Shown one piece after another: positions 8,103 to 54,560 of a stretch of DNA of 58,727 bases; position 1 is the stretch's first letter; each line of letters starts with the position of its first letter. Under the pieces are notes generated by a model that was not told the origin of the DNA, did no database searches, and was given only the letters and a program-made list of their open reading frames with translations. The translations under genes were made by a program, and so were the position numbers. Source of the DNA: Acidobacteriota bacterium (GTDB lineage: Bacteria; Acidobacteriota; Polarisedimenticolia; Polarisedimenticolales; DASRJG01); contig JANMVW010000334.1 of NCBI GenBank assembly GCA_031393555.1, forward strand, positions 1-58,727. The letters are read 5' to 3'.

Positions 8103-8821
8103 CGCTCGATGAGCAGGAACAGCGCTCCGCAAAGCGCAATGAGGATACCGCTCGCCGTCTCCATGTGACGAGCGACGGCGGGCACGTGGAGGCGCCGGGT
8201 CCCCACGACGCCGGCCACCGACAGGCCCACCATCAGCGCGATCGTCGTGACGGAGTAGGCCAGGGTCACGAGCGCGACGGCGCCGGCCCCCTGCTCGGCC
8301 GTCGCCACCATGATTGGAAGCAGGAGGACGCACGGGTTGAGGCCGACGATCATCGCGAGAGAAATCGCTCCCTTCCCCGCGTCCGTGCGGATCCAGGCGT
8401 CGTCGGCGTGGTAGTGAAGGTGCTCGCTATCGGCGAAGGCCTCGTGCCCATCGCAACGGTCCTGCTCGCTTCGGGCGTGGAGCAGGGCGCCCCCCGGATG
8501 GAAGTGGCCGCCCTTGCGCCATGCCCACAGCGCATAGGCCACGCCGAAGATGACGAGCAACAAGCCGCTTGCGCGTTCGAGCCGCTCGCCGACGGCACGT
8601 GCGGCGGTCTTCCCGAGTCCCAGCGCCAGGAGGCCCAAAGCGATGGACAAGAGCGTGTGGACGAAGGCTGAAAAGCCGGACACCGCCGCGGTCGTTCGTG
8701 CGGACCAACCCCGAGCCCGTCCCACGAGAACGAAGGGAAGCCAATGATCGGGGATGAGCGTGTGGAAGGCCGCGGTCGCCGCGGCCGTCAGGAGCAGAAG
8801 CGACGGAACGGCACCAGGCAC
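8099..8821 (-). CDS. integral membrane protein, putative metal (Ni/Co-type) transporter with His-rich loop
   Basis: About 6 TM segments, an HTLIPDHW motif in TM1 and a His-rich loop (GGHFHPGG...HEAFADSEHLHYHADD). The track ORF (to 9208) overlaps rny. I use the GTG at 8821, which overlaps the rny stop (TAGTG). Family assignment is tentative. Confidence 0.55.
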   Translation of the reverse strand: MPGAVPSLLLLTAAATAAFHTLIPDHWLPFVLVGRARGWSARTTAAVSGFSAFVHTLLSIALGLLALGLGKTAARAVGERLERASGLLLVIFGVAYALWAWRKGGHFHPGGALLHARSEQDRCDGHEAFADSEHLHYHADDAWIRTDAGKGAISLAMIVGLNPCVLLLPIMVATAEQGAGAVALVTLAYSVTTIALMVGLSVAGVVGTRRLHVPAVARHMETASGILIALCGALFLLIER

Positions 8822-10386
8822 TACCGCGCGACTTCCTGCGCCCGGATCTCGCGTATGACGGTCACCTTGATCTTGCCCGGGTAGTCCATTTCGGTCTCGA
8901 TGCGGCGAGCCAGATCGGAGGCCAGCAGGTCGATCCGCGCATCGTCGACAAGATCGGTGTTCGCGATGACGCGGATCTCCCGTCCCGCCTGGAGCGCGTA
9001 GGACTGTTCTACGCCGTCCATGCCATTCGCGAGCCCTTCGAGTTGCTCGATGCGTCGGACGTACTCCGCAGCGCTCTTGCGTCGCGCCCCAGGGCGAGCG
9101 CCCGACAACGCGTCGGCCGCTGCGACCAGGATCGTGATCGGCGTCGTCACCTCGATGTCTTCGTGATGGGCGGCGACGGCGTTGACGACTTCCCAGTTCT
9201 CTCCACACCGGGTCGCGACCTCGGCGCCGATCTCCGGGTGTGTCCCCTCCCGCTCGTAGTCGACCGCTTTGCCAATGTCGTGGAACAAGCCGGCGCGGCG
9301 CGCGATCTTCTCGTCGAGGCCCAGTTCGGCGGCCATGATTCCCGTGAGGTAGGCGACTTCCTTGGAGTGCATGAGGACGTTTTGGCCATAGGAGGTCCGA
9401 AAGAGCAGCCGTCCGAGAAGTTTGACCATCTCGGGCTGAACGTCCTTGATCCCCATCTCCTTGAGGGTCTGCTCACCCGCCTTCTTCATCTCGTCGTCGA
9501 GCCTTCGCTGATGGCGGCGCGTCAACTCCTCGATGCGACGCGGGTGGATATTGCCGTCCTTCAACAACATTTCGAGCACACGCCGCGCGATCTCGCGCTT
9601 CACCGGGTTGAATCCTGAAAGCTGCAACGACTCCCCTGACTCGTCGAGGAGGATCTGAATGCCGGTCAACTGCTCGAACGCCTTGATGTTCTTTCCTTCG
9701 TGCCCGATGATCCGGCCTCGCATCTGCCCGCCTGACGGCAAGGCGAAACGCGTTACCGTCCGCTCCGCGGAAAGGTCTGACGCAATGCGTTCCATCGCGA
9801 GCGCGATGATCTTCTGGGCTTCGGCCTCGGCACCCCGCTGCGCCTCGTCCTTGATCTCTTTGACCAGGCCGGCAGCCTCGAAGCGAGCCTCCGCCTTGAG
9901 ATTCGCCAGCAATTGCCTACGCGCCTCGTCACGCGTCAAACCTGACGCATATTCGAGTCGGGAGTTTTCCTCTTGGACGAGCTTCTCCAAGACCTCCCGA
10001 TCGCGAGCGAGAGCGGCCTCGCGCGCGGCGAGATTACTCTCCGCTTCGGAAACGGCCTCTCGCTGCCTCTGATTCTCGGCTTCGATCTCGGCGAGACCGT
10101 CCTGCAATTGCTTCAGATCGCGCTCGCGCTTGGCCACCTGCCCCTTGCGCGAGCGGAGGTCCGAATCGGCCTTCGACTTCTCGGCAAGGATCTGATCCCG
10201 CGCCTCGAGGATCTGATGACGTTTCAGGTTCTCCGCCTCGCGCAAGGCGGCTCTCTGGAACTCCTCGGACTTGAGCCGGGCAGCCGTTAGGCTGCTCGCC
10301 CCAAGTCGGTTATTCAGGAACCAACCGAGCACCGCGCAGAGCGCTCCGACCACGGCGCCGACGAGAACGAGGTTGAAGGAACTCAT
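8821..10386 (-). CDS. rny: ribonuclease Y
   Basis: N-terminal TM segment (MSSFNLVLVGAVVGALCAVLGWFL), a long coiled coil, a KH domain (GRIIGHEGKNIKAFEQLTG) and an HD domain (GLFHDIGKA...AAHHED). The ATG at 10386 overlaps the stop of the upstream gene (ATGA). Confidence 0.93.
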   Translation of the reverse strand: MSSFNLVLVGAVVGALCAVLGWFLNNRLGASSLTAARLKSEEFQRAALREAENLKRHQILEARDQILAEKSKADSDLRSRKGQVAKRERDLKQLQDGLAEIEAENQRQREAVSEAESNLAAREAALARDREVLEKLVQEENSRLEYASGLTRDEARRQLLANLKAEARFEAAGLVKEIKDEAQRGAEAEAQKIIALAMERIASDLSAERTVTRFALPSGGQMRGRIIGHEGKNIKAFEQLTGIQILLDESGESLQLSGFNPVKREIARRVLEMLLKDGNIHPRRIEELTRRHQRRLDDEMKKAGEQTLKEMGIKDVQPEMVKLLGRLLFRTSYGQNVLMHSKEVAYLTGIMAAELGLDEKIARRAGLFHDIGKAVDYEREGTHPEIGAEVATRCGENWEVVNAVAAHHEDIEVTTPITILVAAADALSGARPGARRKSAAEYVRRIEQLEGLANGMDGVEQSYALQAGREIRVIANTDLVDDARIDLLASDLARRIETEMDYPGKIKVTVIREIRAQEVAR

Positions 10387-19750: not shown

Positions 19751-19826
19751 TGGTGGAGCTGAAGGGGATCGAACCCTCGACCTCATGACTGCCAGTCATG
19801 CGCTCTCCCAGCTGAGCTACAGCCCC
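19751..19826 (-). tRNA. tRNA-Ala (anticodon GGC)
   Basis: The reverse complement is GGGGCTGTAGCTCAGCTGGGAGAGCGCATGACTGGCAGTCATGAGGTCGAGGGTTCGATCCCCTTCAGCTCCACCA. It forms a cloverleaf with the G3:U70 Ala identity pair, anticodon loop CTGGCAG and an encoded CCA. Confidence 0.93.
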
Positions 19827-19840
19827 GACGCGACCGCGGC

Positions 19841-19869
19841 ATTCTTACATTCGGAGTGGGGAGCGTCAA
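19841..19869 (-). promoter_or_regulatory. sigma70-like promoter candidate for tRNA-Ala
   Basis: The minus strand reads TTGACG (19869..19864), a 17-nt spacer, then AAGAAT (19846..19841). The element ends 14 nt upstream of the mature tRNA 5' end. Confidence 0.4.
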
Positions 19870-19895
19870 GAAACGGACCCGAGCAACCGCGGACG

Positions 19896-19925
19896 TTGAC
19901 TCCCTTCGGGGCGCGGCGATAGTGT
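19896..19925 (+). promoter_or_regulatory. sigma70-like promoter candidate for tRNA-Sec
   Basis: TTGACT (19896-19901), an 18-nt spacer, then TAGTGT (19920-19925), about 50 nt upstream of the tRNA-Sec 5' end. Confidence 0.35.
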
Positions 19926-19975
19926 ACGGCGTCGTCTCCGAGCGATCCGCGCGGCGACGGCGAACGGCATCGAAC

Positions 19976-20073
19976 GGAAGCGCATGGGGCCCGGTGGCCC
20001 TCCCGGTCTTCAAAACCGCGTGTCGGGCGGCTAAGCCGTCCGGGGTGGGTTCGACTCCCACACGCTTCCGCCA
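19976..20073 (+). tRNA. selC: tRNA-Sec (selenocysteine, anticodon UCA), candidate
   Basis: 98 nt: GGAAGCGCATGGGGCCCGGTGGCCCTCCCGGTCTTCAAAACCGCGTGTCGGGCGGCTAAGCCGTCCGGGGTGGGTTCGACTCCCACACGCTTCCGCCA. Sec hallmarks are present: a long acceptor stem, a 6-bp D-stem with a 4-nt CGGT loop as in E. coli selC, anticodon loop CTTCAAA, an ~8-bp variable arm, T-loop TTCGACT and discriminator G + CCA. Two mismatches remain, at the 8th acceptor pair (C/A) and in the anticodon stem (C/C). Confidence 0.78.
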
Positions 20074-20083
20074 TGGGGACACA

Positions 20084-21004
20084 TTGACCTTCGCTCTCGC
20101 CATCCACGGTGGCGCCTGGAACATCCCCGATGGCGCCGTGGATGCGCATCGTCGGGGGCTCGTCAAGCCGTTGACAGAAGGCTTCGACGCGCTTCGCAAG
20201 GGTGCGTCGGCGCTCGACGTCGTGGAATTCGCGGTGCGCCTGCTCGAGAACGACTCCGCCTTCAACGCGGGGCGCGGTGCCCACCTCAACAGCGCGGGCG
20301 CACTGGAGATGGACGCTTCGATCATGGAGGGAACGACGCGACGCGCCGGGGCCGTCGCGGCCATCAGCGGCGTTCGCCATCCCGTCTCGGTCGCACGACG
20401 CGTGATGGAGGCCTCACCTCATGTCCTCCTCGTCGGCGCCGGGGCAAAGCGCTTCGCGAAACACGCCGGGGCCGAAATGTGCACGACGCGTTCCCTTCTC
20501 GTTGGGCGGGAACTCGAGCGATGGACACGCATTCGCGCTGGCGAGCAGGGCCTGGTCACGACGGAGTTTTCCCCCCGCGCACAGCCGCACGGAACGGTCG
20601 GCGCGGTGGCGCTCGATCGGAAAGGGAGGGTCGCGGCGGCCACTTCGACCGGTGGAACCCAGGACAAGGCGCCTGGGCGCGTCGGCGACAGCGCGATTGT
20701 CGGGAGCGGCACCTACGCGGACGATCGGCGAGGAGCGGCATCCTGCACAGGTTGGGGTGAGCCGATCCTGCGCGCGGTTCTCGCCAAAACCGCCGTCGAT
20801 GCACTCGCGTCCCACCCCGGCCCTGACGCCGCGTCAAGGGCAGCGCTTCGGGAGTTGGCGCGCCTTTCTGGGTTCGGCGGCGTCATCCTCGTCGATCGGA
20901 GCGGGCGCGCGGGCGCTTCATTCAACACGCCGCGCATGGCGCGGGGCTTGGCGGACTTCCGGGGCCTCGCGGTTATGGTCGAGCGCAAGGAGCGTCGGCG
21001 TTGA
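20084..21004 (+). CDS. isoaspartyl peptidase / L-asparaginase (Ntn-hydrolase, plant-type asparaginase family)
   Basis: Motifs: IHGGAW, NDSAFNAGRGAHLN, the autoprocessing site HGTVGAVALD and GDSAIVGSGTYAD. The start is set at TTG 20084 (MTFALAIHGG) because the track ORF N-terminus overlaps the tRNA-Sec gene. Confidence 0.85.
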   Translation: MTFALAIHGGAWNIPDGAVDAHRRGLVKPLTEGFDALRKGASALDVVEFAVRLLENDSAFNAGRGAHLNSAGALEMDASIMEGTTRRAGAVAAISGVRHPVSVARRVMEASPHVLLVGAGAKRFAKHAGAEMCTTRSLLVGRELERWTRIRAGEQGLVTTEFSPRAQPHGTVGAVALDRKGRVAAATSTGGTQDKAPGRVGDSAIVGSGTYADDRRGAASCTGWGEPILRAVLAKTAVDALASHPGPDAASRAALRELARLSGFGGVILVDRSGRAGASFNTPRMARGLADFRGLAVMVERKERRR

Positions 21005-22015: not shown

Positions 22016-22348
22016 TCACGAACGAGTCGCCGTTTCGAGGTCGTCGTAGATCTCAAAAATCCGGTCCAACTGGATCAGTTCGAGAACCGAGCGAACGCCC
22101 GCTGTCAAGCCGCAGAATCGCGCGCGCCCGCCATGCAAGCGCGAGTGCTTGAACAGGCCCACGAGCACGCCAACCCCGGCGGAGTCGATGAACTCAACAC
22201 CCGAAAGGTCCACTACGATGTCAGATGCGTCGCCAAGGAGCCTCAGCGCCTCAGCCCTGATCTCGCCGGCGTTTGCGCTGTCGATCGCATCGCCGCCGCG
22301 GACGGACAGCCGCACAAGGCTCCCTTCACGAACGACCTGGAGCTTCAT
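22016..22348 (-). CDS. STAS-domain anti-sigma-factor antagonist (SpoIIAA/RsbV-like)
   Basis: 110 aa. DLSGVEFIDSAGVGVLV carries the conserved phosphorylatable Ser. There is an ATGA overlap with the upstream gene. Confidence 0.85.
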   Translation of the reverse strand: MKLQVVREGSLVRLSVRGGDAIDSANAGEIRAEALRLLGDASDIVVDLSGVEFIDSAGVGVLVGLFKHSRLHGGRARFCGLTAGVRSVLELIQLDRIFEIYDDLETATRS

Positions 22349-23319
22349 GATCGTTTCCCGGGAACGGGCGTCGCCGCGCCCATGTCGAGCAACTCGTCGA
22401 CCGCGTCCTGGCGTCCGTCTTTGACGACCTGCGCCAGTTCGCGTATCAGGTCGGCGATGCGAATCGAGGAATCTTCGATGACGGCGGCCGCCTTGGCGAC
22501 GCTCGGATCGTCGAACTTCCGCGTTTGGAGGATCTGAGCCCGCCCGAGGAGGGCGGTCAATGGGTTATTGATCTTGTGGCTCAGGACGGACAGTGTTTTG
22601 AGCACTTCCGCCAGCTTCTCCAACCGAACGCGCTCCTCGACCGCCCGATTGCGCTGCGTCACGTCGGTGACCAAGACGACCTCACTTTCCGGGTCGCCGG
22701 GCATCGTACGCCGCGCGACGAGCAGCGTGCGGCGGGCCCCGTCCGCCATCGGAAGATCAATCTCCCCCTCGCTTTCGCGCGGAACGCCTTGGGCGATCAA
22801 CCTCGCGAACGCGGTGTCGTCCTTGGCGCCAGCCAAGCCGCGAGCCGCCGCGTTGGCGGTGAGAAACACACCGTCCGCTCCGAGGAGCATGATGCCGGAA
22901 GACAACGCAGCCAGAACGCCGTCCAATCGAGCGCGCGATCTTTGCGCTTCATCGAGAGCGGCGACGAGTCGCTCGTTAGTGTCCGCGAGTGCGGCCGCGC
23001 GCATCTTCAACTCACCCGCGACAACGGCTTTCTCCTTCAGGGCCGCCGCCTGCGTCGCGAACATGACAAGCCCGCGGAGCTTGCCCGCACTGTCGGGATG
23101 GGCGACTCCGCTGCGTGCGTCCAGTGCGTCGGACGGAAGCGCCGCAAGCCGCGACTCATACTCGTCAAGCACGCGGTCGAGCAACTCATCGACATCGTGG
23201 CTCCTGCCGATCAGGTCGAGACCGACCTCGTGGATCCGGCACAACTCGACGAGGTCGGGGAGAGCGCTTTCCGCCGGTTCCTTCGCCGCTCGATTCCGTC
23301 CGTTCTCCGACATGGCCAC
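22345..23319 (-). CDS. coiled-coil/PAS protein ending in a HisKA (DHp) domain, with no ATPase domain
   Basis: 324 aa. A PAS-like segment (LSSGIMLLGADGVFLTANAAARGL...VLVTDVTQRN) is followed by the H-box LSVLSHKINNPLTALLGRAQIL. The ORF ends about 60 aa later, with no N, G1 or G2 boxes. Confidence 0.7.
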   Translation of the reverse strand: MAMSENGRNRAAKEPAESALPDLVELCRIHEVGLDLIGRSHDVDELLDRVLDEYESRLAALPSDALDARSGVAHPDSAGKLRGLVMFATQAAALKEKAVVAGELKMRAAALADTNERLVAALDEAQRSRARLDGVLAALSSGIMLLGADGVFLTANAAARGLAGAKDDTAFARLIAQGVPRESEGEIDLPMADGARRTLLVARRTMPGDPESEVVLVTDVTQRNRAVEERVRLEKLAEVLKTLSVLSHKINNPLTALLGRAQILQTRKFDDPSVAKAAAVIEDSSIRIADLIRELAQVVKDGRQDAVDELLDMGAATPVPGKRS

Positions 23320-23333
23320 CCCTTGTCCTTCGT

Positions 23334-23765
23334 CTAGATTCGAACTTTCGTGTTGCTTTTCCGCTTGACCAGCACGACCCGTCCTCCCGAACCGGTGTCT
23401 TCGAAGGACACCTCGTCGACGAGCGCCGTGATGAGGTACAGCCCGTAACCGTTCTCCGACGGCCTTCGCAGATCAGGTGGCACGTATCCGGCTGGATCGA
23501 ACGGCTCACCCTCATGGGCGATGACGACCACAACTCGTTCGTCCTCGATCGCGACGCGAAGGTCGACACGCCCACCGCAGCGCCCCCCATACGCGTGAAG
23601 ATGCACATTCGCACACGCCTCGCTGAAGGCCACCCCCAGATCCTGAGCGTCCCGAACCGTAAACCCGGCTTCGAGGACGAGGCGTGTAATCATGCGTCGC
23701 GCTTTCCTCAATTCCAGCGGATCACTCGACAGGGTGGCGCACTTCTCGAGGGCGAGTTCACGCAC
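23334..23765 (-). CDS. RsbW/SpoIIAB-like anti-sigma serine kinase (stand-alone GHKL ATPase)
   Basis: HATPase_c_2-like sequence: AFSEACANVHLHAY, HEGEPFDP, ENGYGLYLITALVDEVSF. I place the start at GTG 23765 (VRELALEKCATLSSDPLELRKARRMI), 8 nt inside the end of the upstream gene. The longer track ORF overlaps that gene by about 150 nt. Confidence 0.75.
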   Translation of the reverse strand: MRELALEKCATLSSDPLELRKARRMITRLVLEAGFTVRDAQDLGVAFSEACANVHLHAYGGRCGGRVDLRVAIEDERVVVVIAHEGEPFDPAGYVPPDLRRPSENGYGLYLITALVDEVSFEDTGSGGRVVLVKRKSNTKVRI

Positions 23766-25866
23766 GGCGCGCCTCTTGCACGATCGGCGGTGCCGCAGCT
23801 TGCGCAGGGATCGAAAGTCGGAACTCGCTCCCGCCCCCAGGGCGCGGAAGATAGAGGACCGTTCCACCGTGGCGTCGCGCGATCGCGCGCGCTTCGTAAA
23901 GTCCGAGCCCAACACCGGACGGCTTGCCGGTCAACGGATCGCCGCCTTGCTCAAACGGCGCAAACGCCCGCTCGGCGTCCTCTTCCGCGATCCCGGGGCC
24001 TCGGTCGAAGACCGCGAAGGCCACCCCGGCAACGGCTCCGCCCGGACGACCCAGCAGGCAAGGCGAGACGTGAAGTTCGATCGGTACCTCTGCGACGCCG
24101 AACTTCTTCGCGTTGTCCAGGAGGTTGGCGAGCGCCCGCACCAATCGCGACGGAACGGCTGGGAAGGGCTCGAGGAGGGGGTCGAGCAGGACGCTCGTGC
24201 TCTCCAGGACTCCTGCGGCGCTCAACGCGCCAGCGACGATATCCGCGGGCGCGACCTGCTCGAGTGCGGCCTCGTCGCCGTCATCGAGGCGTGCGACGCG
24301 CAGAAGGCCGTCGACCAACCCGTCGAGCGCCCGGGACGCTCGCAAGATACCTGCGGCCATTTCCGCTCGCTCGGACCGGTCGCCTTCGTAGTCCCGCAGA
24401 AACGTCGCGGCGCTGATGATCCCCGTGAGAGGCGAGCGCATCTCGTGCGAGACGTTGGCGAGGAACCGATCCTTCATCCCATCGACCGACTTGAGCTCGT
24501 CATAGGCCTTGCGAAGCGAACGCGTGCGCGCGCTCACGACGTCTTCGAGCCGGTCTCGATGGGCCCGCAGCTCTTCGTAGATGCGCACCTTTTCCAGTCC
24601 GACCGCAAGGTGGCCGGCCAGCGTCGCGAGGAACCGCACATCCACATCGGCAAACCCCCCGTCGGGGCCGGACATCGCCACGACGATCGATGCGCGTTCG
24701 TCGGGCTCCACGGGGACGACGGCCAGGGCGCGCAGGCCGGAAGTAACGCCCACCGCCTCGGGAACCTCGAGCTCGAGGTCGTCCGCGACGGTGCAGCCGG
24801 GACCCAGGAGCATCCGCTTAAGGAGCGAGGCCATGCCTGCATCCTGAGCGAGCGGCGCGAGATCGCGGCCCACGGAACGCTCCAGTTGCACCTGGCCGGC
24901 CGCGTCCAACGTGCAAAATGCAGCGCCGGCCGCGCCGAGAGTTGCCACGACCGCGCTCAAGGCCGCTTCCAACACGGCATCCCGCTCGAAACTGGCCCCG
25001 GTCGAGCGGAGGGCATCGGAGAGGTTGCGCAGCGATTCCGCCTCGCGCGTCAGCCGTGACGCTCGTACGTGTTCGTCCACAAGCTGGGCGCCCAGGGCGA
25101 CGCTCGAAGCTACGGCGCTCTCCAACAGATCGGACGATTCGAGTAGGATCGGCGCTGACTCCACCAGCGAGACGGCTGCGCTGCCTGCGGTTTTGGCGCC
25201 GCGCGCCATGTAGGGAGCAAACGACGCTTGAAGCTGCGCGGCGAGATCGCCGGCATCGAGTGATCGTCGTGTTTGGGGCGCGGCGAAAGCGACGAGCCGC
25301 TCGAGCATCAAACGAGAGGCGGCAAGGAAGGTTTCGAGGACTCCGGTGCCTTTGCAGGCAACCGCCGGGACGCCCATCCCAGGGGCGAGACCGAACCAGT
25401 CTCCCATCGCCTCCTCGGAAAGGGCGCTCTGGAGGTCGCGCTTGTTGAACTGGACCAGGATAGGAACGATGGCGGGATCCAGGTGCGTTGAGCGCATCGT
25501 TCGCATCAGGTTGTCCCAGGCTTGCCGATTGTCGCGCTCGCGGGCGGAATCGGAATCGGCCACAAACACGACGGCGTCGGCCCCTGCTAAGACGACGCGA
25601 CGAGTCGCGTCATAGCGAACTTGACCCGGGACGGTGTAGAGCTTGAGAGCGACCTTGTACCCGAGCACATGTCCAAGGTCGAAAGGAAGCAGATCGAAAA
25701 ATAGCGTGCGATCGTCCGCGGTGTTGACCGAAACGAGCCTCTCCCTGTCGTTGGGATCGGTGATGTTGTGAAGGACGCGCAGATTGGTGGTTTTGCCGCC
25801 GAGGGCGGGCCCGTAGTACACGAGTTTCGCGTACAACCTGCGATCGGTGAGGCTCCACTGCGCCAC
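23758..25866 (-). CDS. MglA-type small GTPase domain fused to a GAF - HisKA - HATPase_c sensor histidine kinase
   Basis: 702 aa, GTG start with GAGGAG 6 nt upstream. N-terminal G-motifs: KLVYYGPALGGKTTN, DDRTLFFD, LYTVPGQ, FNKRD, ACKGTGV. These are colinear with Myxococcus MglA. A GAF-like region follows, then the H-box SHEMRSPLT, N-box LLDNAKKF, G1 DRGPGI and G2 GVGLGL. Confidence 0.85.
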   Translation of the reverse strand: MAQWSLTDRRLYAKLVYYGPALGGKTTNLRVLHNITDPNDRERLVSVNTADDRTLFFDLLPFDLGHVLGYKVALKLYTVPGQVRYDATRRVVLAGADAVVFVADSDSARERDNRQAWDNLMRTMRSTHLDPAIVPILVQFNKRDLQSALSEEAMGDWFGLAPGMGVPAVACKGTGVLETFLAASRLMLERLVAFAAPQTRRSLDAGDLAAQLQASFAPYMARGAKTAGSAAVSLVESAPILLESSDLLESAVASSVALGAQLVDEHVRASRLTREAESLRNLSDALRSTGASFERDAVLEAALSAVVATLGAAGAAFCTLDAAGQVQLERSVGRDLAPLAQDAGMASLLKRMLLGPGCTVADDLELEVPEAVGVTSGLRALAVVPVEPDERASIVVAMSGPDGGFADVDVRFLATLAGHLAVGLEKVRIYEELRAHRDRLEDVVSARTRSLRKAYDELKSVDGMKDRFLANVSHEMRSPLTGIISAATFLRDYEGDRSERAEMAAGILRASRALDGLVDGLLRVARLDDGDEAALEQVAPADIVAGALSAAGVLESTSVLLDPLLEPFPAVPSRLVRALANLLDNAKKFGVAEVPIELHVSPCLLGRPGGAVAGVAFAVFDRGPGIAEEDAERAFAPFEQGGDPLTGKPSGVGLGLYEARAIARRHGGTVLYLPRPGGGSEFRLSIPAQAAAPPIVQEARRA

Positions 25867-25869
25867 GGA

Positions 25870-26256
25870 TCACTCCTCGGAAGCGCGGCCGATGAGTTCA
25901 CGGACCCGCTGCTTGAGCTCGTTTGGCGAGTAGGGCTTCGTCAGAAAATCTGCGGCGCCAAGCGCGAGCGCTCGCTCACGATCGCGATCCTGTCCGCGTG
26001 CCGACAGCAACACGATCGGGATCTCGGCATAGCGCGGATCGCTCTTCAGTTCGGCGCACCACGTCAGGCCGTCCTTACCGGGCATCATCACGTCGAGGAA
26101 GATCAGGTCCGGTCGACAGGACTCGACCGCACGCAAGCCTTCTTCGGCGTCGGCCACGGTCGCCGGTTGGTACCCCTCCTCCCGAAGAATGAACTCGAGG
26201 GGCCGTCGTATGAAGGCGTCGTCGTCGACGATGAGAATCCGTTTTGGCGCCGTCAC
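25870..26256 (-). CDS. single-domain response regulator (CheY-like receiver)
   Basis: 128 aa. Motifs: ILIVDDD, the phospho-acceptor context DLIFLDVMMPGKDG, LLSARG and FLTKP. The GTG start has a GTGA overlap with the upstream stop. Confidence 0.9.
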   Translation of the reverse strand: MTAPKRILIVDDDAFIRRPLEFILREEGYQPATVADAEEGLRAVESCRPDLIFLDVMMPGKDGLTWCAELKSDPRYAEIPIVLLSARGQDRDRERALALGAADFLTKPYSPNELKQRVRELIGRASEE

Positions 26257-27593
26257 GACCCCTCCTCGATCGCAACGCCCCGCGCGACGACCAACGTCAC
26301 GTCGTCACAAAAAGGCGTCGTGCCGGCGTGGAGGGAGAGCGCATTCAACACGTTTTCTCGAATCTCGGCGGCACGCCGCGCCGGACATCGCGCCGCCTCG
26401 ATCAGCCGATCCATTCCGAACGGTCGCCTCGCGGCATCTCGGGCCTCGATCAGGCCGTCCGTATAGAGAAGCAGCACATCACCGGGCGCGAAGCGCTGAT
26501 CGACGTCGCGCCATCGCGCTCCCGCTAGGATTCCGAGCGCCGGGCCGCACGCTTTGAGCTTTTCGACGTCACCGTTTCGGCGCAGGAGGAGCGGCGGATT
26601 GTGTCCGGCATTGGACCAAACGATCCGGCGTCCATCGGGGAGGAAGCGTGCGAAGACGACAGTCGCAAACATGTCGGTGGCGGAGAAATCCGATTCAAGG
26701 ACCTCGTTGACACGCCCCAAGACATCGCCCGCAGACAGAGTGTCGCGGGCCTCGGACTGCAGGGCCCCTTTGGCGATCGCCATGTAGAGCGCGGCCCCAA
26801 CCCCGTGCCCCGCCACGTCGGCGATGGCGATACCCAGGCTGCCGTCGGCCATCGCGACATACCCGTAGTAGTCCCCACCCACTCCTTCCGCTGCCCGGAA
26901 TCCGCCAGACACGTCGAGACCGGCGAACAGTGGATCGTGGCGGGGAAGCAGCCCTCGGTGAATCTCGCGTGCGATCTCCCCCTCTCGAATCCGCGCCTCG
27001 GCGTCCCGAATGGTCTCGGCCAGGCGCTCGTTGCGAATAAACGCTGCGGCGAGCGCGGCGATTGCCGTCATGAGTTTGATCTCGCCGGTCATGTAACCCC
27101 GGCCTTCGGGCCTTCCGTTGAGAACCAACGCACCGAGGGCCGACCCCTGACACTCCGGTAGGGCTACGACCGCCGATGCCGCCGCGGTGGAGGACGCTTC
27201 CCTCGCCGAAGGCCGCCCCGTCGCGACGGCGTCTTGAACGGCGCGCGCAGGCGTCGATGCCGGCGAGTCAGGATGAGACGCAGCGCAAACGAGTGTCGTG
27301 CCGCTTGTGAGCCACAATTCTCCAGCGACTGCCCCGAGCACGCTCATCGCCTCACGCACGACGAGTCCGGCAATGGCGCGCTCCCCTCGGACGGAACCGA
27401 TCTGCTCGGTCAATCGATAGACAAAGGTCGCTTCTTCGTACCGCTCGAGCACTTCCGCGCACAGGCTCGCGATCTCCGATTCCTGCCGGACGAGGCGGGA
27501 GTGCAGACCGTCCTTGTCGACCGGGTCGGCAGTGGCCGTAGACCGCAGGGGGCCATCGGCGAGGACATCGTTTTTTGCCGGATGCACCGCCAC
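26253..27593 (-). CDS. GAF-domain PP2C (SpoIIE/RsbU-like) serine phosphatase
   Basis: 446 aa. An N-terminal GAF-like region is followed by GGDYYGY, IADVAGHGVGAAL, YTDGLIEA and DDVTLVV. The start is GTG at 27593 or GTG at 27587. Confidence 0.85.
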   Translation of the reverse strand: MAVHPAKNDVLADGPLRSTATADPVDKDGLHSRLVRQESEIASLCAEVLERYEEATFVYRLTEQIGSVRGERAIAGLVVREAMSVLGAVAGELWLTSGTTLVCAASHPDSPASTPARAVQDAVATGRPSAREASSTAAASAVVALPECQGSALGALVLNGRPEGRGYMTGEIKLMTAIAALAAAFIRNERLAETIRDAEARIREGEIAREIHRGLLPRHDPLFAGLDVSGGFRAAEGVGGDYYGYVAMADGSLGIAIADVAGHGVGAALYMAIAKGALQSEARDTLSAGDVLGRVNEVLESDFSATDMFATVVFARFLPDGRRIVWSNAGHNPPLLLRRNGDVEKLKACGPALGILAGARWRDVDQRFAPGDVLLLYTDGLIEARDAARRPFGMDRLIEAARCPARRAAEIRENVLNALSLHAGTTPFCDDVTLVVARGVAIEEGS

Positions 27594-27633: not shown

Positions 27634-27661
27634 AATATAAGTACGGAACTCTAAAGATCAA
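27634..27661 (-). promoter_or_regulatory. sigma70-like promoter candidate for the PP2C...STAS operon
   Basis: The minus strand reads TTGATC (27661..27656), a 16-nt spacer, then TATATT (27639..27634), about 40 nt upstream of the GTG at 27593. Confidence 0.35.
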
Positions 27662-27763
27662 ATTTTGCGCGGGAAACAGAGGCGTCGATAGCCCGGGCGG
27701 CAGTTGCCCCCCCTTGTTGCGATAAAGTCGTCCAATTCGTCGACTGGGGCGTACTACCCGAAC

Positions 27764-28369
27764 ATGGCGATGGGAGAGTGCGCAGCCGTGACCGTTCCGA
27801 CCGATGAAGACCTGCTTCTCGCGCTCCGGAAAGGACATCCCGCCTCGCTCGGCCTCCTTTTCGCACGCTGGGAAGGCCCGCTGTTCCGCTTCGTTTCTCG
27901 ATTGGTCGACCGGCCTGACGACGCTCGGGACGTCTGCCAGGAAACTTTTCTTAGGATCCTGGACAAGGCCGAGGCTTTTCGCGACGGCGCTCGCTTTTCG
28001 ACCTGGATGTACCAGATCGCTCTCAACCTCTGCCGCGATCAGACACGAAAGAAACGCCGGTGGGGCCGATTGTTGCTGGTGGAGCCCTCCGCCGGCGTCG
28101 AGACGCCTCGCGAACACGCGGCGCCCGTAACCACCGCTACGAGTCCCTCCGCGGCGTACGAGCACACCGAAAGGCAATGCGCGGTCCGTAGGGCCTTGTC
28201 CGCCCTTCCGCGCGAACAGCGCGAGGTCCTTTTGCTCAAGGAATACGAAGGTCTGAAGTTTCGGGAAATCGCCGACGTCTTGGGAGTCGCGGAAAGCACG
28301 GTGAAATCCCGGATGTACGCGGGCTTGGACGCGATGAGGATGTCCTTGGCCAGCCTCGGAATCCAGTAG
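27764..28369 (+). CDS. ECF-type RNA polymerase sigma factor (sigma-70 family, regions 2 and 4)
   Basis: Region 2: DARDVCQETFLRILDKAEAFRDGARFSTWMYQIALNLCRD. Region 4: LPREQREVLLLKEYEGLKFREIADVLGVAESTVKSRMYAG. The ATG is at 27764. Confidence 0.9.
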   Translation: MAMGECAAVTVPTDEDLLLALRKGHPASLGLLFARWEGPLFRFVSRLVDRPDDARDVCQETFLRILDKAEAFRDGARFSTWMYQIALNLCRDQTRKKRRWGRLLLVEPSAGVETPREHAAPVTTATSPSAAYEHTERQCAVRRALSALPREQREVLLLKEYEGLKFREIADVLGVAESTVKSRMYAGLDAMRMSLASLGIQ

Positions 28370-28378
28370 GAGTCAGCG

Positions 28379-29029
28379 ATGACCTGCACAAACTGGCACG
28401 AAAGTCTCACCGGACGGGTGTACGGCGAAATCGGGCCCGAAGACGATGCGGCGCTCGCCGTGCACCTCGAATCCTGCGCGAGTTGCAGAGACACTCTCGA
28501 CGAATTCCAGAACGTACGGGCCCTTCTTCGGGAAGATGGGGACGATGCGGCCCGTGTCCCACGAGTCATCGTCCTGAACGAGCGAGCCAGATTCAAGCCG
28601 GCCCTGTTAGCCGCATCGATCCTGGGAGCCGCGGTTTTGGCCGGAGCAGGGGCCGGAGCAGGGTACGCTCTAGGTTTGGGCCACTCGCCCGCCCCTGTAG
28701 CGGTTGCGGCCTCGACCCCCGTGACGCCGAGCGTCTCAACGGAAGAACTCGTGCGACGGGAAGTAGACCGCCGCTTGGCGGCGCGGAAAGAGTCCAGCAC
28801 GATCGCGACCGCCGATCCGTCTGGAGAGCGGCCCATCAAAGCGTCGGACCTTCGTGCCGAGTTCGCAAAATTCGAGCGTCGGTTGAACGGCGCGCGCGCA
28901 ACGGACCTCGACTACGTTCTCGATCAGATCGCCGCTTCGGAGTTCCGCGTCGGCACGCGGCTCGGCAAGACGAATCAAGCTTTGCGCACCGTCGCGCTCG
29001 CAAACACGCCTTACGTGAACGAGCAGTAG
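28379..29029 (+). CDS. anti-sigma factor (zf-HC2 type), single-pass membrane protein
   Basis: N-terminal H-x3-C-x2-C (HLESCASCRD) and a TM segment ALLAASILGAAVLAGAGAGAGYALG. It lies 9 nt after the sigma gene and has TAGGAG before its ATG. Confidence 0.75.
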   Translation: MTCTNWHESLTGRVYGEIGPEDDAALAVHLESCASCRDTLDEFQNVRALLREDGDDAARVPRVIVLNERARFKPALLAASILGAAVLAGAGAGAGYALGLGHSPAPVAVAASTPVTPSVSTEELVRREVDRRLAARKESSTIATADPSGERPIKASDLRAEFAKFERRLNGARATDLDYVLDQIAASEFRVGTRLGKTNQALRTVALANTPYVNEQ

Positions 29030-30994: not shown

Positions 30995-32481
30995 GGAACC
31001 ACCGCAACCGCGCCGGTCGACCCGTCGAGAATTCGCAAAGCGCCGTCCGGCGCCGCGGCGAGACAGATCGGTCGAGACACGCCGCATGCGCCAAGCGGTA
31101 GCGTATCGCTCACCTCCCCAGAAGGGGTGAGCCGCGTCACCGTTTCCGCTTTTTCGTCGAGCACCGAAACCCTCCCCGCCGCATCGACAGCCAGCGCGAT
31201 GGGACGTCGAAACGTCATCGTCCCGAACCCCGATCCAGCTCCTGGGCCCGAGAGGATGACGATCCGTCCCGACTTCTCTTCGGCGGCGAGCACCCGCCCG
31301 CCAGCGACCACGAGCGCGGAAACACCTGAGCCCTTGCTTTCCCGAACGACGATCGAGGCGGGTGCTCCGGGAATCCAGCGCTCCACGCGGTCCCCCCTCC
31401 TATCGGCTATCCAAATGGCTCCTGAGGCGTCGACCGCGATCGCCACGGGGGCGGCCAGACGTCCCAAGGCCAGGACCGCCTTGAATCCGGCGGCGTCCCA
31501 GCGGAGGAGCGTATCCTTCGTGGCGACGAAAACCCGACCGTAAGGGTCCGTCGTAACCGCCGTGGCATCAGCGACCGCCACGGGTGGAGCACCGATCCCC
31601 TTGGCATCGAACGGCTTAAGGAGGTCGCTCTTGCGATCGAACACAAGAATTCCCGCGCCGGCCGCCGTCGCGAGGAGGCTCGCCCCTCGCGTCGTCGGGA
31701 TGACGGCTAGCGGCGAGGCCCTTGCAGCCCACCGGCGCTCCGGAACCCTCTGGCGCAGCACTTCGCGAAGAGCGAGTTCGCGCAATGCCTCCACTTGGAT
31801 GCCGGGGGGGGCGCCGGTTTCAGCCGCCTCCTGGAACCAACCCGCGGCGACGCCGAACTCCCCCATGGCGAGCAGGGCCCGCCCGAAACCGGCGCGCGCG
31901 CGCGGCGCCACATCGCTTTCCGGCCGCTCCACGACGATGCGCGCGAACGCTGCGCCCGCTCGTTCCGTTGCGCCCGCCTGTTCGTCGAGGACGCCCAGGG
32001 CGTAACGCGCCGCGACGACCCAGCGTTCGCGCGACGGAATGGCGGCGAGCGCGATCAGATCCTGCCTGGCTCGAGCCGCATCGCGTCCGGGAATCGGCGC
32101 TATGCGAATCAGAGCTAGTCGATAGCGCGCTTCTAGCTGGCGATCGCCGTCTGCGTAGTACGCAACGACCTTCTGGAGAGGGACAACCGCCGCGGCGGCT
32201 CGCGCGCCCTCCAGAGTTGCGACGTCTTCGGGCCACTCGGGCAGTCCCGAAATACACGCAAGATCGACAAGCGCATCGTCCGCATAAGGCCCAGTGGGAG
32301 CGAGCGCCACAACCCTCAAAAAGGCTGAAGCGGCGTCCGGCGACCGCTCGGCGGAAAGACGCTGAGCGAGACGGTACTCCCGCTCGGCTGCTGCGGCGTC
32401 GGGGACGTCCTGCGCCACGACCGCCGAACCGAACGCGAGCGCCGCAGCGAACCACGCGGCGCCATGCACGGAAGCTCTCAT
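30991..32481 (-). CDS. secreted TPR-like + NHL/beta-propeller repeat protein
   Basis: ATG 32481 (MRASVHGAAWFAAALAFGSAVVAQ, a signal peptide) has an ATGA overlap with the kinase stop. C-terminal NHL-like repeats: PVAIAVDASGAIWIADRRGDRVERW, PIALAVDAAGRVSVLDEKAETVTRL. Confidence 0.6.
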   Translation of the reverse strand: MRASVHGAAWFAAALAFGSAVVAQDVPDAAAAEREYRLAQRLSAERSPDAASAFLRVVALAPTGPYADDALVDLACISGLPEWPEDVATLEGARAAAAVVPLQKVVAYYADGDRQLEARYRLALIRIAPIPGRDAARARQDLIALAAIPSRERWVVAARYALGVLDEQAGATERAGAAFARIVVERPESDVAPRARAGFGRALLAMGEFGVAAGWFQEAAETGAPPGIQVEALRELALREVLRQRVPERRWAARASPLAVIPTTRGASLLATAAGAGILVFDRKSDLLKPFDAKGIGAPPVAVADATAVTTDPYGRVFVATKDTLLRWDAAGFKAVLALGRLAAPVAIAVDASGAIWIADRRGDRVERWIPGAPASIVVRESKGSGVSALVVAGGRVLAAEEKSGRIVILSGPGAGSGFGTMTFRRPIALAVDAAGRVSVLDEKAETVTRLTPSGEVSDTLPLGACGVSRPICLAAAPDGALRILDGSTGAVAVVP

Positions 32482-34355
32482 CTGCCGGACCGGCCAAACG
32501 AAACGCGAACCGGGGCGTTCGTTCCCGGCGCCAAGTTGATGTCCTGCTCGCGAGATTCGCCCGAAACAGACGATTCGACGCGAAGGACGTACCGACCGGC
32601 AGCTACTTCGTGACGAAGGGGTGCCTCGCCAACCTGCCGCCACGCCGCTCCTGGGCGTTTCAACGAGACGCGGCAATTGGGAGGAAACGTCTGCACGACA
32701 AGACTCGCGAGGGCCGGGATGACGATCACTGGGGTCGTGGAGCCGCCCGCCGGCACATCCAGCGTGAACGCGACGTCGACGAACCGCTCCTCGTTCGTAG
32801 CGCGGAGTTCATGCGATCCCGCCGGGACCTCGAGGCCTTCGGGTCGACGTTCCACGAGCTTGCCATCAACGAAGAACTGGGTGGGCAGGCGCGTTGCTGG
32901 GAGGAGGATCCGGCCGGTCGGGATCGCCTCGAGCTTGAGCGCACCGGCGGCTCTGCGCGCATCGAAAGGCGTCGCTTTCGCGCGGATCGTGACGCTCGAG
33001 GTACGGAAGCCCTCGGCCCGGACCTCAATCGTGTTGTCGCGACAAAGGTCCAACTCGGTCGTCGCCGGCGCTGGCCCCGCGTCCTGGCCGTTGACGGTGA
33101 CGCGCGCCCCGGGAACGTCTGGATCGACCGTGACCGCCGCCCTCGCAGGATCGACGACCATAACGATTTCAGCCCCAGCGTCGGCGGCTTCAACGCGGTG
33201 CTTCGCCTCTCGGCAGCCATCGTTCACCGTGAGAACTTCGAACGGACCCCCTGCGGGAAACTGGATCACGTCGCTCGCAAGAGGCGCTCCGTTGACTTGC
33301 ACCGGTAGTCCTGCCGGTTCCGTCCGGACGCGTGTCGTCAGCATGGCGACCTTCGGTGGCGCGAATGGACCCGCGTGCAAGAGGAAAGCCGTGACGATGC
33401 CTCCGAGGGCCAGGGCGATCACGACGATCCACGGAACGAGAACTCGCCTGCCTTGCGCCATCGGGATGCGCTGCGGAGGTGGCGCCAACTGTCGCGCCGC
33501 CGACGCGCTCGCCCGCACGGTTGCGGGACGGGCAGCGGCACCGGCCCGCCGCAGCCCTTCCGCAAACTCCGCTCCGTTCCGAAACCGGTCCTCGGGAGAC
33601 TTCGCCAGCGCGCGCTCGAGAAACGTCGCGAGCGAGTGGGGAATCCGCTCGAGCCGAAGCGGATCCGCCTTCGGAGCCTCGTGCACGATGCGGTAGAGAA
33701 CTGAGGACATTGAGTCGCCACCGAACGGCTTAACCCCCGTCAGCATTTCGTAGCAGACGACGCCCAGAGAGAAAAGGTCAGTGCGCCCATCCAGCGGATC
33801 GCCTCTCACCTGCTCCGGCGACATGTAGTTCGGCGTGCCGAAAAGCGCGCCGTCGTGGGTCATCGAGGTCGCCGGGTTCTTGGCGAGACCAAAGTCCATG
33901 ATCTTCACGGCGCGATCGCCCACGCGCATGAGATTCGCCGGCTTGATGTCGCGGTGAACAATGCCATGCTCATGGGCAAAACCGAGCGCTTCGGCCGCCG
34001 CTGCCACAAGTTCGACGACGGCGGGCACCGGGAGGAGCGCCTCTTCCCGGCAAACTGCGTCCAACGTTTGACCTTCGACGAACTCCATCGCGAGGTAAGG
34101 CACGCCGTCCGCCTCGCCGACGTCGAAAATCGTCACGATCCCCGGGTGGAGCAGTTTTCCAGCCGATCTCGCTTCGCGGAGGAAACGCTCGCGAGACTGG
34201 GCGCGCTCCGCCTCGGGGAGCGAGGCGAAGATCTGAATGGTCTTGATCGCAACGCGCCTCTCGATCGTCGGATCGAAGGCCAGGAAGACGCGGCCCATCG
34301 CACCACGCCCCAGCTCTTTATCGATGCGGTAACGTCCGAGGCTATCGACCTGCAT
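32478..34355 (-). CDS. Hanks-type Ser/Thr protein kinase with TM segment and extracytoplasmic PEGA-like repeats
   Basis: Kinase motifs: GRGAMGRVFLA, VAIK, HRDIKPANLM, DFGLA, GTPNYMSPE. A TM segment follows (VLVPWIVVIALALGGIVTAFLL), then PEGA-like modules (VRTEPAGLPVQVNG). Confidence 0.9.
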   Translation of the reverse strand: MQVDSLGRYRIDKELGRGAMGRVFLAFDPTIERRVAIKTIQIFASLPEAERAQSRERFLREARSAGKLLHPGIVTIFDVGEADGVPYLAMEFVEGQTLDAVCREEALLPVPAVVELVAAAAEALGFAHEHGIVHRDIKPANLMRVGDRAVKIMDFGLAKNPATSMTHDGALFGTPNYMSPEQVRGDPLDGRTDLFSLGVVCYEMLTGVKPFGGDSMSSVLYRIVHEAPKADPLRLERIPHSLATFLERALAKSPEDRFRNGAEFAEGLRRAGAAARPATVRASASAARQLAPPPQRIPMAQGRRVLVPWIVVIALALGGIVTAFLLHAGPFAPPKVAMLTTRVRTEPAGLPVQVNGAPLASDVIQFPAGGPFEVLTVNDGCREAKHRVEAADAGAEIVMVVDPARAAVTVDPDVPGARVTVNGQDAGPAPATTELDLCRDNTIEVRAEGFRTSSVTIRAKATPFDARRAAGALKLEAIPTGRILLPATRLPTQFFVDGKLVERRPEGLEVPAGSHELRATNEERFVDVAFTLDVPAGGSTTPVIVIPALASLVVQTFPPNCRVSLKRPGAAWRQVGEAPLRHEVAAGRYVLRVESSVSGESREQDINLAPGTNAPVRVSFGRSGR

Positions 34356-54409: not shown

Positions 54410-54560
54410 AGCGGCATTCTAGCGGACGGGCCTCCCGCCGGGCCCCTTGCGTCCGTCCCATCGGGAACCCACATTGCACCGCGGACGAGGCGCCGCAGTT
54501 CGGCGTGCCGTAGCCGCCGGAAGGGAGTCCGCACATGTTTTGGGGGGCCTCTTGCAGCCA

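Follow-up and report, generated by a model that had tools for sequence, protein, structure and literature searches.

A conserved fusion of an MglA-type GTPase domain with a GAF-histidine kinase in the Acidobacteriota

A single open reading frame (ORF) on the minus strand of a contig from a soil or sediment bacterium of the Acidobacteriota (JANMVW010000334.1, assembly GCA_031393555.1) joins an MglA-type small GTPase domain to a GAF domain and a histidine kinase. The fusion gene lies in an operon for two-component signaling and partner switching within the window, i.e. the whole stretch of 58,727 nucleotides (nt) that was analyzed, and is real, widespread, conserved and apparently uncharacterized. 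With moderate confidence we regard its product as a soluble cytoplasmic class-I (HisKA) sensor histidine kinase equipped with a Group-1-type input domain of the MglA family. Ras-like GTPases and two-component phosphorelays are archetypal switches of eukaryotes and bacteria, and to our knowledge their meeting in bacteria is known only in trans, from Frz/RomR with MglA and from the poorly understood conservons. The covalent fusion would provide a tractable single-polypeptide system in which a kinase reads out the conformational change of a G domain.

Results

Domain architecture of the fusion protein

The fusion gene (window:23758-25866, minus strand) starts with GTG and runs uninterrupted over 2109 nt, encoding 702 amino acids (aa), of which the N-terminal MAQW is kept in homologs. 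An initial annotation made from the sequence alone had described an ORF of this length passing without internal stop from a GTPase into GAF, HisKA and HATPase_c domains, and sequence, profiles and structure model agree with it. The segments of the gene, including the dimerization and histidine phosphotransfer (DHp) domain, are the following.

23758 to 25866, minus strand: whole MglA-GAF-histidine kinase ORF, 702 aa
25288 to 25866, minus strand: MglA-type (Group-1-like) G domain, aa 1-193 (phmmer against PDB, Foldseek, 93-sequence alignment)
25789 to 25812, minus strand: P-loop codons, aa 19-26, including Ala21 (alignments; PMC3983030)
24985 to 25287, minus strand: linker, aa 194-294 (AlphaFold2 models and conservation; no Pfam or NCBIfam family)
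24652 to 24984, minus strand: GAF domain, aa 295-405 (Pfam GAF_2, Foldseek on the isolated domain)
24277 to 24651, minus strand: signaling helix, aa 407-475, leading into DHp/HisKA, with the phospho-acceptor His474 in SHEMRSPLT
23758 to 24276, minus strand: HATPase_c, aa 531-702, with N-box N585, G1 box D621-x-G623-x-G625 and G2 box G651-x-G653-x-G655

In a phmmer search of all PDB sequences, aa 7-191 aligned gap-free to Myxococcus xanthus MglA (5ymx, 6h17, 6hjh; E=1.3e-43) and the G domain aligned, likewise without gaps, to Thermus thermophilus MglA (3t12; E=6e-43), the next-best PDB family being Arl8 at only E=1e-4. The best fold match in the PDB found by Foldseek was again M. xanthus MglA (6izw_A), with a target-normalized template modeling (TM) score of 0.87 and a root-mean-square deviation of 2.5 Å over 191 columns at 41% identity. 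These matches place the N-terminus in the MglA/Ras superfamily, on which the initial annotation had made its reading depend, and the motifs quoted there, GPALGGKTT (aa 19-27), DDRTLFFD (51-58), LYTVPGQ (76-82), FNKRD (140-144) and ACKGTGV (170-176), were all found, each at its colinear MglA position. For this domain Pfam returned only a marginal Arf-family match, and the one NCBIfam match, TIGR00231, scored 22 bits where 42.5 is the cutoff.

Group 1 MglA proteins are marked by an intrinsic Arg adjoining the G2 Thr and by a TVPGQ G3 motif (PMC4316618). The fusion carries the Group 1 P-loop GxxxxGK[T/S] as G19-PALG-G24-K25-T26, the arginine finger in an invariant D52-R53-T54 colinear with R53/T54 of MglA, and the G3 motif as an invariant T78-V-P-G-Q82, in which Thr replaces Asp57 of Ras and the catalytic Gln is kept; by Foldseek and phmmer the fold is of Group 1 as well. 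In organization it differs, being a protein of 702 aa with GAF, HisKA and HATPase_c domains rather than a single domain of 150-240 aa, and instead of being coupled to an MglB gene within four genes it has none that tblastn or jackhmmer found in the window or 87 related loci, or Pfam among small window ORFs. Since the sequence and structure are those of Group 1 and both organizational features are lacking, the proper name should be "MglA-type domain" and not "an MglA".

Pfam recognized two families in the C-terminal part, HisKA (aa 464-530, E=7.6e-14) and HATPase_c (aa 571-689, E=3.9e-19). The C-terminus is an ordinary kinase of HisKA type, its DHp domain bearing the H-box His and its catalytic domain the N, G1 and G2 boxes. 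The AlphaFold2 model of the whole protein, built on 93 homologs (mean predicted local distance difference test score, pLDDT, 81), divides it into the G domain (1-193), helices (197-226), a disordered stretch (228-245), a further, long helix (247-288), an alpha/beta domain (295-405), a continuous helix (407-475) that runs into DHp, and the catalytic domain (536-687). The helices 197-226 are conserved and carry the motif TRRxLDxGDLxxQLxxAFAPxLAR; the stretch 228-245 is variable. Apart from the G domain, the model matched the DHp and catalytic (CA) cores of HK853 type and GAF/PHY-kinase bacteriophytochromes (Foldseek, PDB).

The middle domain was detected by Pfam as GAF_2 (aa 296-425) at 22-26 bits, which is below threshold, and above threshold in a relative (L017). 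Because its order of secondary structure elements, alpha-beta-beta-alpha-beta-beta-beta-alpha, suits a Roadblock domain as well as a GAF domain, a Roadblock/MglB-like fold acting in cis was considered and rejected: the top 50 Foldseek matches of an isolated aa 240-440 model (pLDDT 91.7) were all GAF and 0/50 Roadblock. The GAF-like assignment of the initial annotation is thereby borne out. No recognizable ligand-binding signature was found in this GAF domain.

Contiguity and conservation

The initial annotation had raised a doubt about contiguity at the GTPase-kinase junction and had asked whether the architecture occurs elsewhere. The 2109-nt gene is 99.67% identical, with 0 gaps, in three independent assemblies (L005, L006 and L007), two of them Logan assemblies from different sequencing runs and the third a metagenome-assembled genome (MAG) from NCBI. 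A homology search in NCBI, JGI, ENA and Logan sources yielded more than 115 clusters of 685-726 aa at 98-100% query coverage and 48-100% identity, plus a few shorter fragments. Full-length single-frame copies were present in Polarisedimenticolaceae, in other Acidobacteriota MAGs and in the chromosome record CP011806.1 of Acidobacteria bacterium Mor1 (species-representative genome set). The contiguity is therefore sound. In Myxococcota the homologs are separate, adjacent G-protein and kinase genes in different frames, which could suggest that an assembly, frameshift or annotation artifact had joined two genes here; given the three gap-free assemblies, more than 90 full-length homologs of 693-726 aa, that of Mor1 included, and a conserved linker, the probability of such an artifact is negligible and we consider it ruled out.

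Conservation was assessed in an alignment of 93 homologs with 48-85% identity and in a smaller set of 20 sequences. Invariant in the 93 homologs were G19, P20, A21, G23, G24, K25, D52, R53, T54, T78, V79, P80, G81, Q82, N141, K142 and D144 of the G domain and S473, H474, E475, M476, P479, N585, D621, G651, G653 and G655 of the kinase. T26, G623 and G625 did not vary among the 20 sequences and were kept in at least 90% of the 93; the linker positions L258, R271, E275 and R280 were invariant too. The invariance of catalytic residues in both G domain and kinase over this range of identity indicates that both nucleotide-handling halves of the fusion are under purifying selection.

Recurrence of the pairing of G domain and kinase

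In a species-level genome scan, the orthologous fusion, of 693-708 aa, was found in Polarisedimenticolia-type and other Acidobacteriota, and divergent fusions occurred in gp22 (791 aa) and in Holophagae (about 740 aa). A further class of 748 aa has an MglA-GAF-HATPase_c arrangement in which Pfam finds no HisKA (L031, L058, L059, L072); its next gene encodes a TPR protein with DUF4388 (PATAN) in 4/4 loci, e.g. L072 8001-11797. A connection of PATAN and TPR proteins with MglA/MglB systems has been made before. Vicinamibacteria have a class of 503-557 aa with the P-loop GPAQSGKTT and a degenerate kinase-like C-terminus (L020-L029, L061). Here, in 8-9 loci, the MglA-domain gene lies downstream of genes for a RelA/SpoT (p)ppGpp synthetase/hydrolase and RidA (e.g. 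L025 4466-9674), a neighborhood which is suggestive of guanine-nucleotide sensing and may be lineage synteny. Some divergent kinase-fused relatives are without Arg53 or Gln82 (P0139, P0187, P0155, P0209).

In Myxococcota, a 233-243-aa MglA-like gene is directly followed, in a different frame, by a gene for a PocR-HisKA-HATPase_c kinase. This pair, apparently uncharacterized, is kept in about 45 loci (L036, L041-L057, L060, L063, L065-L066, L069-L071, L073-L077, L079-L083, L086-L087) from Myxococcus, Corallococcus, Pyxidicoccus, Archangium, Anaeromyxobacter and related MAGs, with a T2SSE-type ATPase gene upstream in the Myxococcus, Corallococcus and Pyxidicoccus loci. Cultured organisms of these three genera are among them. 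Some tblastn matches in Myxococcus and Corallococcus looked like full-length fusions and were resolved by frame analysis into two adjacent genes, i.e. split homologs. As judged from these comparisons, the acidobacterial fusion is a Rosetta-stone of a gene pairing that is independently kept elsewhere. The recurrence of the pairing, both as fusions and as split pairs, is the strongest comparative argument that G domain and kinase work together, and the link from G domain to kinase recurs irrespective of downstream context. The fusion further predicts physical contact between the MglA paralogue and the neighboring PocR kinase in the genetically tractable Myxococcus and Corallococcus.

The kinase fusions belong to a larger group. 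An exhaustive phmmer search with aa 1-194 against 1.84 billion cluster representatives (50% identity) gave 5439 matches, 1477 of them at E<1e-30; almost all of the best 150 representatives were multidomain proteins, 250-805 aa long, whose G domain takes up residues 1-190. Classification of the C-terminus with hidden Markov models built from the family revealed a histidine kinase in 42/149; among the remaining 107/149 are a large class in which a coiled coil at the C-terminus follows an acidic or proline-rich linker, and also long coiled-coil proteins. N-terminal MglA-domain fusions thus form a large unannotated class, and the statement of the initial annotation that MglA is normally stand-alone reflects the literature rather than these best 150 matches. 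The reference survey of prokaryotic Ras-like GTPases left out 39 MglA-clade sequences longer than 240 aa, hence the multidomain class is not described there (PMC4316618). In the source databases the fusion proteins are named "ATP-binding protein", "hypothetical protein" or [quoted passage not shown], because current Pfam and NCBIfam models miss the G domain, which leaves a large multidomain MglA class invisible in databases.

Among the non-kinase members we noted proteins of 400-600 aa (P0162, P0175, P0183, P0185, P0196, P0204, P0207 and similar) in which a long disordered linker, acidic or rich in proline, joins an N-terminal Gly21 MglA domain to a C-terminal coiled coil, and the coiled coil closes with a conserved basic-hydrophobic tail, ...KKSWFRF. 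They look like a tethered or anchored MglA and appear to be undescribed.

Residue 21 and the absence of a neighboring MglB

One position departs from the MglA pattern. Residue 21 (Gly21 in MglA, Gly12 in Ras) is Ala in 93/93 family members, GPALGGKT as compared to GPGLCGKT, so that the P-loop is not in the MglA-specific form ascribed to it in the initial annotation. The G21V variant of MglA has lowered hydrolysis, and the MglA of Bdellovibrio, which has a natural Ser21 and no MglB, is inferred to be permanently GTP-bound (PMC3983030). A survey of 70 species, as cited in the same paper, counts 5 species having an A/S21 MglA and lacking MglB (PMC3983030). By analogy, Ala21 would be expected to blunt hydrolysis of the type driven by a GTPase-activating protein (GAP). 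Among the 42 kinase-fused cluster representatives position 21 is A in 35, S in 2, P in 2 and G in 3, and among the 107 non-kinase representatives it is G in 66 and A in 35. In a rough neighbor-joining tree of the G domains, calculated without support values, the fusion family and related kinase fusions make up a clade of 44, with A21 in 40; the same tree contains a second kinase-rich clade and has canonical MglA inside a mostly Gly21 clade.

MglB was searched for with M. xanthus MglB (identical to PDB 6h5b_B) by tblastn and by three jackhmmer rounds over all six-frame ORFs. Neither the window nor 87 related loci (1.28 Mb, with ±8-10 kb on either side) yielded a Roadblock/LC7 protein, the single query having limited sensitivity for very divergent Roadblock proteins, and none of ten small or unassigned window ORFs matched Robl_LC7 of Pfam. 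For the window, this upholds the initial annotation, which had noted that no roadblock/LC7 gene is present. It had also described MglA as governed by MglB and RomRX, of which the second part needs amending, as RomRX is now reported as an effector and not as a GEF (guanine-nucleotide exchange factor) (PMC13408092). Of small MglA genes, 390/449 (87%) are coupled to MglB within four genes, and by the criteria of that survey the G domain of the fusion is an "orphan" with respect to MglB, of Group-1 type (PMC4316618). With Ala at position 21 throughout the family and MglB missing from the vicinity, the domain probably goes through its nucleotide cycle independently of MglB. The replacement of Gly21 by Ala in a setting without MglB represents a natural experiment on GAP-independent bacterial GTPases.

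The partner-switching operon

The genes around the fusion, all on the minus strand apart from the sigma/anti-sigma pair, are listed below.

26253 to 27593, minus strand: SpoIIE/PP2C-type phosphatase, 446 aa, with an uncharacterized N-terminal half, first operon gene (Pfam SpoIIE E=2e-49)
25870 to 26256, minus strand: single-domain response regulator with D11/D12, D55, S85 and K107 (Pfam Response_reg E=9e-30)
23334 to 23765, minus strand: RsbW-like serine kinase/anti-sigma, 143 aa, GTG start (HATPase_c_2 E=6e-24)
22345 to 23319, minus strand: PAS-HisKA protein with no catalytic ATPase domain, H-box SHKINNPLT
22016 to 22348, minus strand: STAS anti-sigma-factor antagonist with phospho-serine motif FIDS56AG (STAS E=2e-19, TIGR00377 above cutoff)
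27634 to 27661, minus strand: sigma-70-like promoter match upstream of the PP2C gene, the sole match in 21.8-27.9 kb
27704 to 29029, plus strand: extracytoplasmic function (ECF) sigma and zf-HC2 anti-sigma pair, divergent from the operon and syntenic in orthologous loci

The gene order is PP2C, receiver, fusion, RsbW-like kinase, PAS-HisKA and STAS. The receiver start overlaps the PP2C stop (GTGA), the receiver gene lies 3 nt upstream of the fusion, the GTG start of the RsbW-like gene overlaps the fusion stop by 8 nt and the STAS gene overlaps the PAS-HisKA gene (ATGA). From these junctions, the six-gene operon is predicted to be translationally coupled, and the promoter match ahead of the PP2C gene hints weakly at one promoter for the whole operon. 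A PP2C phosphatase, a STAS protein with a phosphorylatable Ser and an RsbW-like HATPase_c_2 kinase, as required for a partner switch, are all encoded. The partner-switching context of the kinase and the receiver 3 nt upstream, both proposed in the initial annotation, are thus confirmed by Pfam and, for the receiver, by the gene junctions.

The cassette is kept around orthologs at 59% (L001) and 51% (L003) identity and largely around the 36%-identical gp22 protein (L017), and the position of the receiver next to the fusion is conserved in orthologs. A partner switch as a universal trait of MglA-kinase fusions was considered and discarded, since it goes with the orthologous family alone (gp22 and, in part, Mor1 included). 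Neither the Holophagae, Vicinamibacteria and 748-aa-class fusions nor the Myxococcota pairs have the cassette around them, so that it would be the particular output of the orthologous family and is not intrinsic to the coupling of MglA and kinase.

Two observations concern the cassette itself. In some orthologous loci a small ORF of 73-81 aa lies between the receiver and fusion genes (L003 9767-9988; L004 46-267; L017 7731-7976); it has no Pfam match on record, none at E<=0.001 in the case of the L017 ORF, and it does not occur in the window, where the gap is 3 nt. The RsbW-like gene is followed by the PAS-HisKA gene with its intact H-box His also in orthologous loci, and the PAS-HisKA protein may be a phosphatase/phosphotransfer module or a split kinase.

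Other features of the window

Further signaling genes lie at 6882-8102 (+), 32478-34355 (-) and 54447-55856 (+). Two were recognized in the translations by eye and encode another SpoIIE-like phosphatase and a GGDEF protein whose N-terminus is GAF-like; there is also a Ser/Thr protein kinase with a PEGA domain (Pfam), which is syntenic with the operon in related loci. A tRNA-Sec (Rfam RF01852, 70 bits; also found by ARAGORN) stands back-to-back with a tRNA-Ala (19976-20069 on the plus and 19754-19826 on the minus strand, respectively), which implies that the organism uses selenoproteins. The tRNA-Sec overlaps the 5' end of a listed asparaginase ORF (19856-21004). Given this overlap and a Pfam match that does not set in before aa 80, the asparaginase probably begins downstream of the tRNA-Sec. 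Finally, a subtilase-like ORF (56962-58725, plus strand) runs off the window, and its C-terminus (58480-58725) consists of about 10 or more tandem heptad-like copies of (T/A)(A/T)TWGDT.

Discussion

Proposed mechanism and alternatives

We propose that the G domain binds guanine nucleotide and that the difference between its GTP and GDP (or empty) conformations would be passed through the conserved helical linker to the GAF domain and on, through the signaling helix of about 70 residues, to DHp. The state of DHp would set how autokinase activity is balanced against phosphatase activity on the single-domain receiver from the gene 3 nt upstream, and the receiver, whose gene is translationally coupled to that of the PP2C phosphatase, would bias the partner switch formed by the phosphatase, the STAS protein and the RsbW-like kinase. 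Such a chain has a known paradigm in RsbK-RsbY and HptB-HsbR, where a receiver and a PP2C phosphatase drive a STAS/RsbW-like partner switch. The kinase would act as a soluble dimer with the G domain as its N-terminal input module, a role argued for by the N-terminal sensor position and by the continuous helix 407-475 from GAF into DHp. The invariance of Arg53 and Gln82 argues, on the evidence of conservation, that hydrolysis still matters in the orthologous family; slow intrinsic hydrolysis by these residues would make the domain a timer or a sensor of guanine-nucleotide availability, not a GAP-driven polarity oscillator. The chances of this mechanism as a whole, in which the G domain, by its nucleotide state, controls how kinase and phosphatase activity on the receiver are balanced and so feeds the partner switch, are in our estimate slightly better than even.

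The proposal builds on domains, motif conservation, contiguity, operon, recurrence in fused and split form and lack of a neighboring MglB, all directly observed, and from these we infer that nucleotide is bound and hydrolyzed and acts on the kinase, which way the signal flows, that the receiver is cognate, what Ala21 does and what the partner switch puts out. Several points weigh against it. That Ala21 blunts hydrolysis is an extrapolation from Ras G12A/S/V and MglA G21V. The monomer model has a predicted TM score (pTM) of 0.50 and does not fix the interdomain geometry or the contacts between switch regions and linker. The actual sensor could be the GAF domain, the G domain then having another role, and an MglB or other GAP may be encoded elsewhere in the genome, the search having covered the window and flanks of ±8-10 kb. 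The RsbW-like kinase has no assigned target, and the neighboring ECF sigma has its own zf-HC2 anti-sigma.

The G domain might instead be an output or localization module, its GTP form recruiting the kinase to a landmark or effector, or the domain might itself be regulated by the kinase. Canonical MglA works by nucleotide-dependent effector binding and polar localization (PMC4085708, PMC13408092), MglA-GTP binding RomR/RomX, SgmX or TPR proteins, and the conservon model puts the GTPase downstream of the kinase, as the output of CvnA (PMC4316618). The TPR-PATAN (DUF4388) gene beside the 748-aa fusion in 4 loci fits as well, TPR proteins being known MglA effectors, and the coiled-coil or tail-anchor-like C-termini of many other N-terminal MglA-domain proteins suggest scaffolding. 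In the orthologous family, however, a cognate-looking receiver and a complete partner switch already supply an output, no candidate effector or landmark gene is conserved beside the fusion, and an N-terminal G domain connected via GAF and signaling helix to DHp has canonical input topology. We consider an output role unlikely, but the likeliest of the alternatives.

A G domain locked by Ala21, constitutively GTP-bound and non-cycling, could also serve as a structural or dimerization module, leaving the GAF domain as the true sensor. The invariant Ala21, the absence of MglB from the window and 87 loci, the inferred permanently GTP-bound state of the S21 MglA of Bdellovibrio (PMC3983030) and the loss of Arg53 or Gln82 in P0139, P0187, P0155 and P0209, by which hydrolysis is dispensable in some lineages, are all in line with it. 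It is nonetheless improbable, as invariant Arg53 and Gln82 over 48-85% identity are hard to explain without hydrolysis, Ala is the mildest non-Gly substitution and the GAF domain is both below the Pfam threshold and devoid of a recognizable ligand-binding signature. Still less can be said for a conventional MglA/MglB module in which an MglB, or a RomR/RomX-like regulator, encoded elsewhere acts in trans and ties motility or polarity to the kinase. It would account for the retention of all Group-1 catalytic residues that MglB repositions; Acidobacteria are reported to have Group 1 MglA, genomes contain 328 orphan MglB genes (PMC4316618), and the window has pseudopilin-like genes. But the 87 loci contain no MglB within ±8-10 kb, whereas 87% of small MglA genes are MglB-coupled (PMC4316618), Ala21 belongs to the substitution class tied to MglB loss (PMC3983030), and the operon context is that of stress-type partner switching and not of motility, which makes this arrangement quite improbable.

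Beyond the gene itself, MglA-type G domains could be a widespread, unrecognized class of intramolecular histidine-kinase regulators, the prokaryotic counterpart of Roc-kinase (LRRK2-like) logic, in which an MglB-independent GTPase of Ala21 type would sense or time the guanine-nucleotide state (GTP/GDP, possibly (p)ppGpp-linked supply) and control a general-stress partner switch by His-Asp output. This generalization is tentative, and we hold it possible rather than probable. If true, the Myxococcota split pairs would represent a third, unstudied MglA-like pathway in model myxobacteria that works via a kinase and not via polarity proteins.

The initial annotation knew of no characterized example, and the open-access literature searched, including PMC4316618, PMC3983030, PMC3441718 and PMC4085708, likewise holds no description of an MglA-kinase fusion, although absence there is not proof. 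The components are familiar and cross-talk between GTPase and kinase has precedent. What appears new, from sequence comparison, is an MglA-type input domain for histidine kinases and a multidomain MglB-independent branch of MglA, which are not categorically new. Specialists in bacterial small GTPases or two-component signaling should take an interest in the covalent fusion and its invariant Ala21, and likewise in how large the hidden multidomain class is and in the gene pair that model myxobacteria have in split form.

Comparison with known systems

With the Group 1 MglA proteins (M. xanthus MXAN_1925, T. thermophilus) the fusion has in common the fold, TVPGQ, R53, Q82 and NKxD, at about 44% identity over the whole G domain. 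These proteins are stand-alone, of about 195 aa, have Gly21 and stand in a motility/polarity context, whereas the fusion has 702 aa, Ala21, no coupled MglB and a partner-switching/two-component operon. The MglA of Bdellovibrio bacteriovorus resembles it in the non-Gly residue 21, the lack of an MglB gene and the inferred GAP independence, and differs in being a single-domain protein with Ser21 whose partners at the predatory pole are RomR and a TPR protein.

The actinobacterial conservon (CvnA kinase, CvnB Roadblock, CvnC, CvnD GTPase; MfpA-E) likewise ties an MglA-family GTPase to a histidine kinase, and GTPase and kinase interact there in trans (PMC4316618). Its components are separate proteins, with a Group 2 GTPase (GTPGQ, no Arg finger), always a Roadblock protein, a membrane HAMP kinase and no response regulator. 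The fusion locus, by contrast, has no Roadblock gene, TVPGQ with R53, a soluble fused kinase and a receiver. The Roco proteins, such as LRRK2 (Roc-COR-kinase), are an analogy only: there too a Ras-like G domain is covalently linked to a kinase, its nucleotide state is thought to gate the output and no classical GAP or GEF is needed, but they have a COR domain, a Ser/Thr kinase and a G domain of Roc/Rup type. In the 702-aa protein Pfam Roc reached 17.9 bits, below the cutoff of 27, and COR gave no match.

On the output side, the closest parallels are RsbK-RsbY-RsbV-RsbW of Bacillus cereus and HptB-HsbR-HsbA of Pseudomonas aeruginosa, in which a His-Asp relay likewise leads to a PP2C-associated receiver controlling a STAS/RsbW-like switch. 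Compared to these, the fusion locus has receiver and PP2C as separate genes, an additional PAS-HisKA protein without catalytic domain and a small-GTPase sensor. Finally, the MglA-like gene and PocR-kinase gene of Myxococcota (e.g. Corallococcus coralloides, L044 7998-8723 / 8732-10216) have a G domain 46-53% identical to that of the fusion with the kinase directly next to it, and differ in being two genes, in a PocR instead of a GAF sensor, in Gly21 in Myxococcaceae and in standing without a partner switch.

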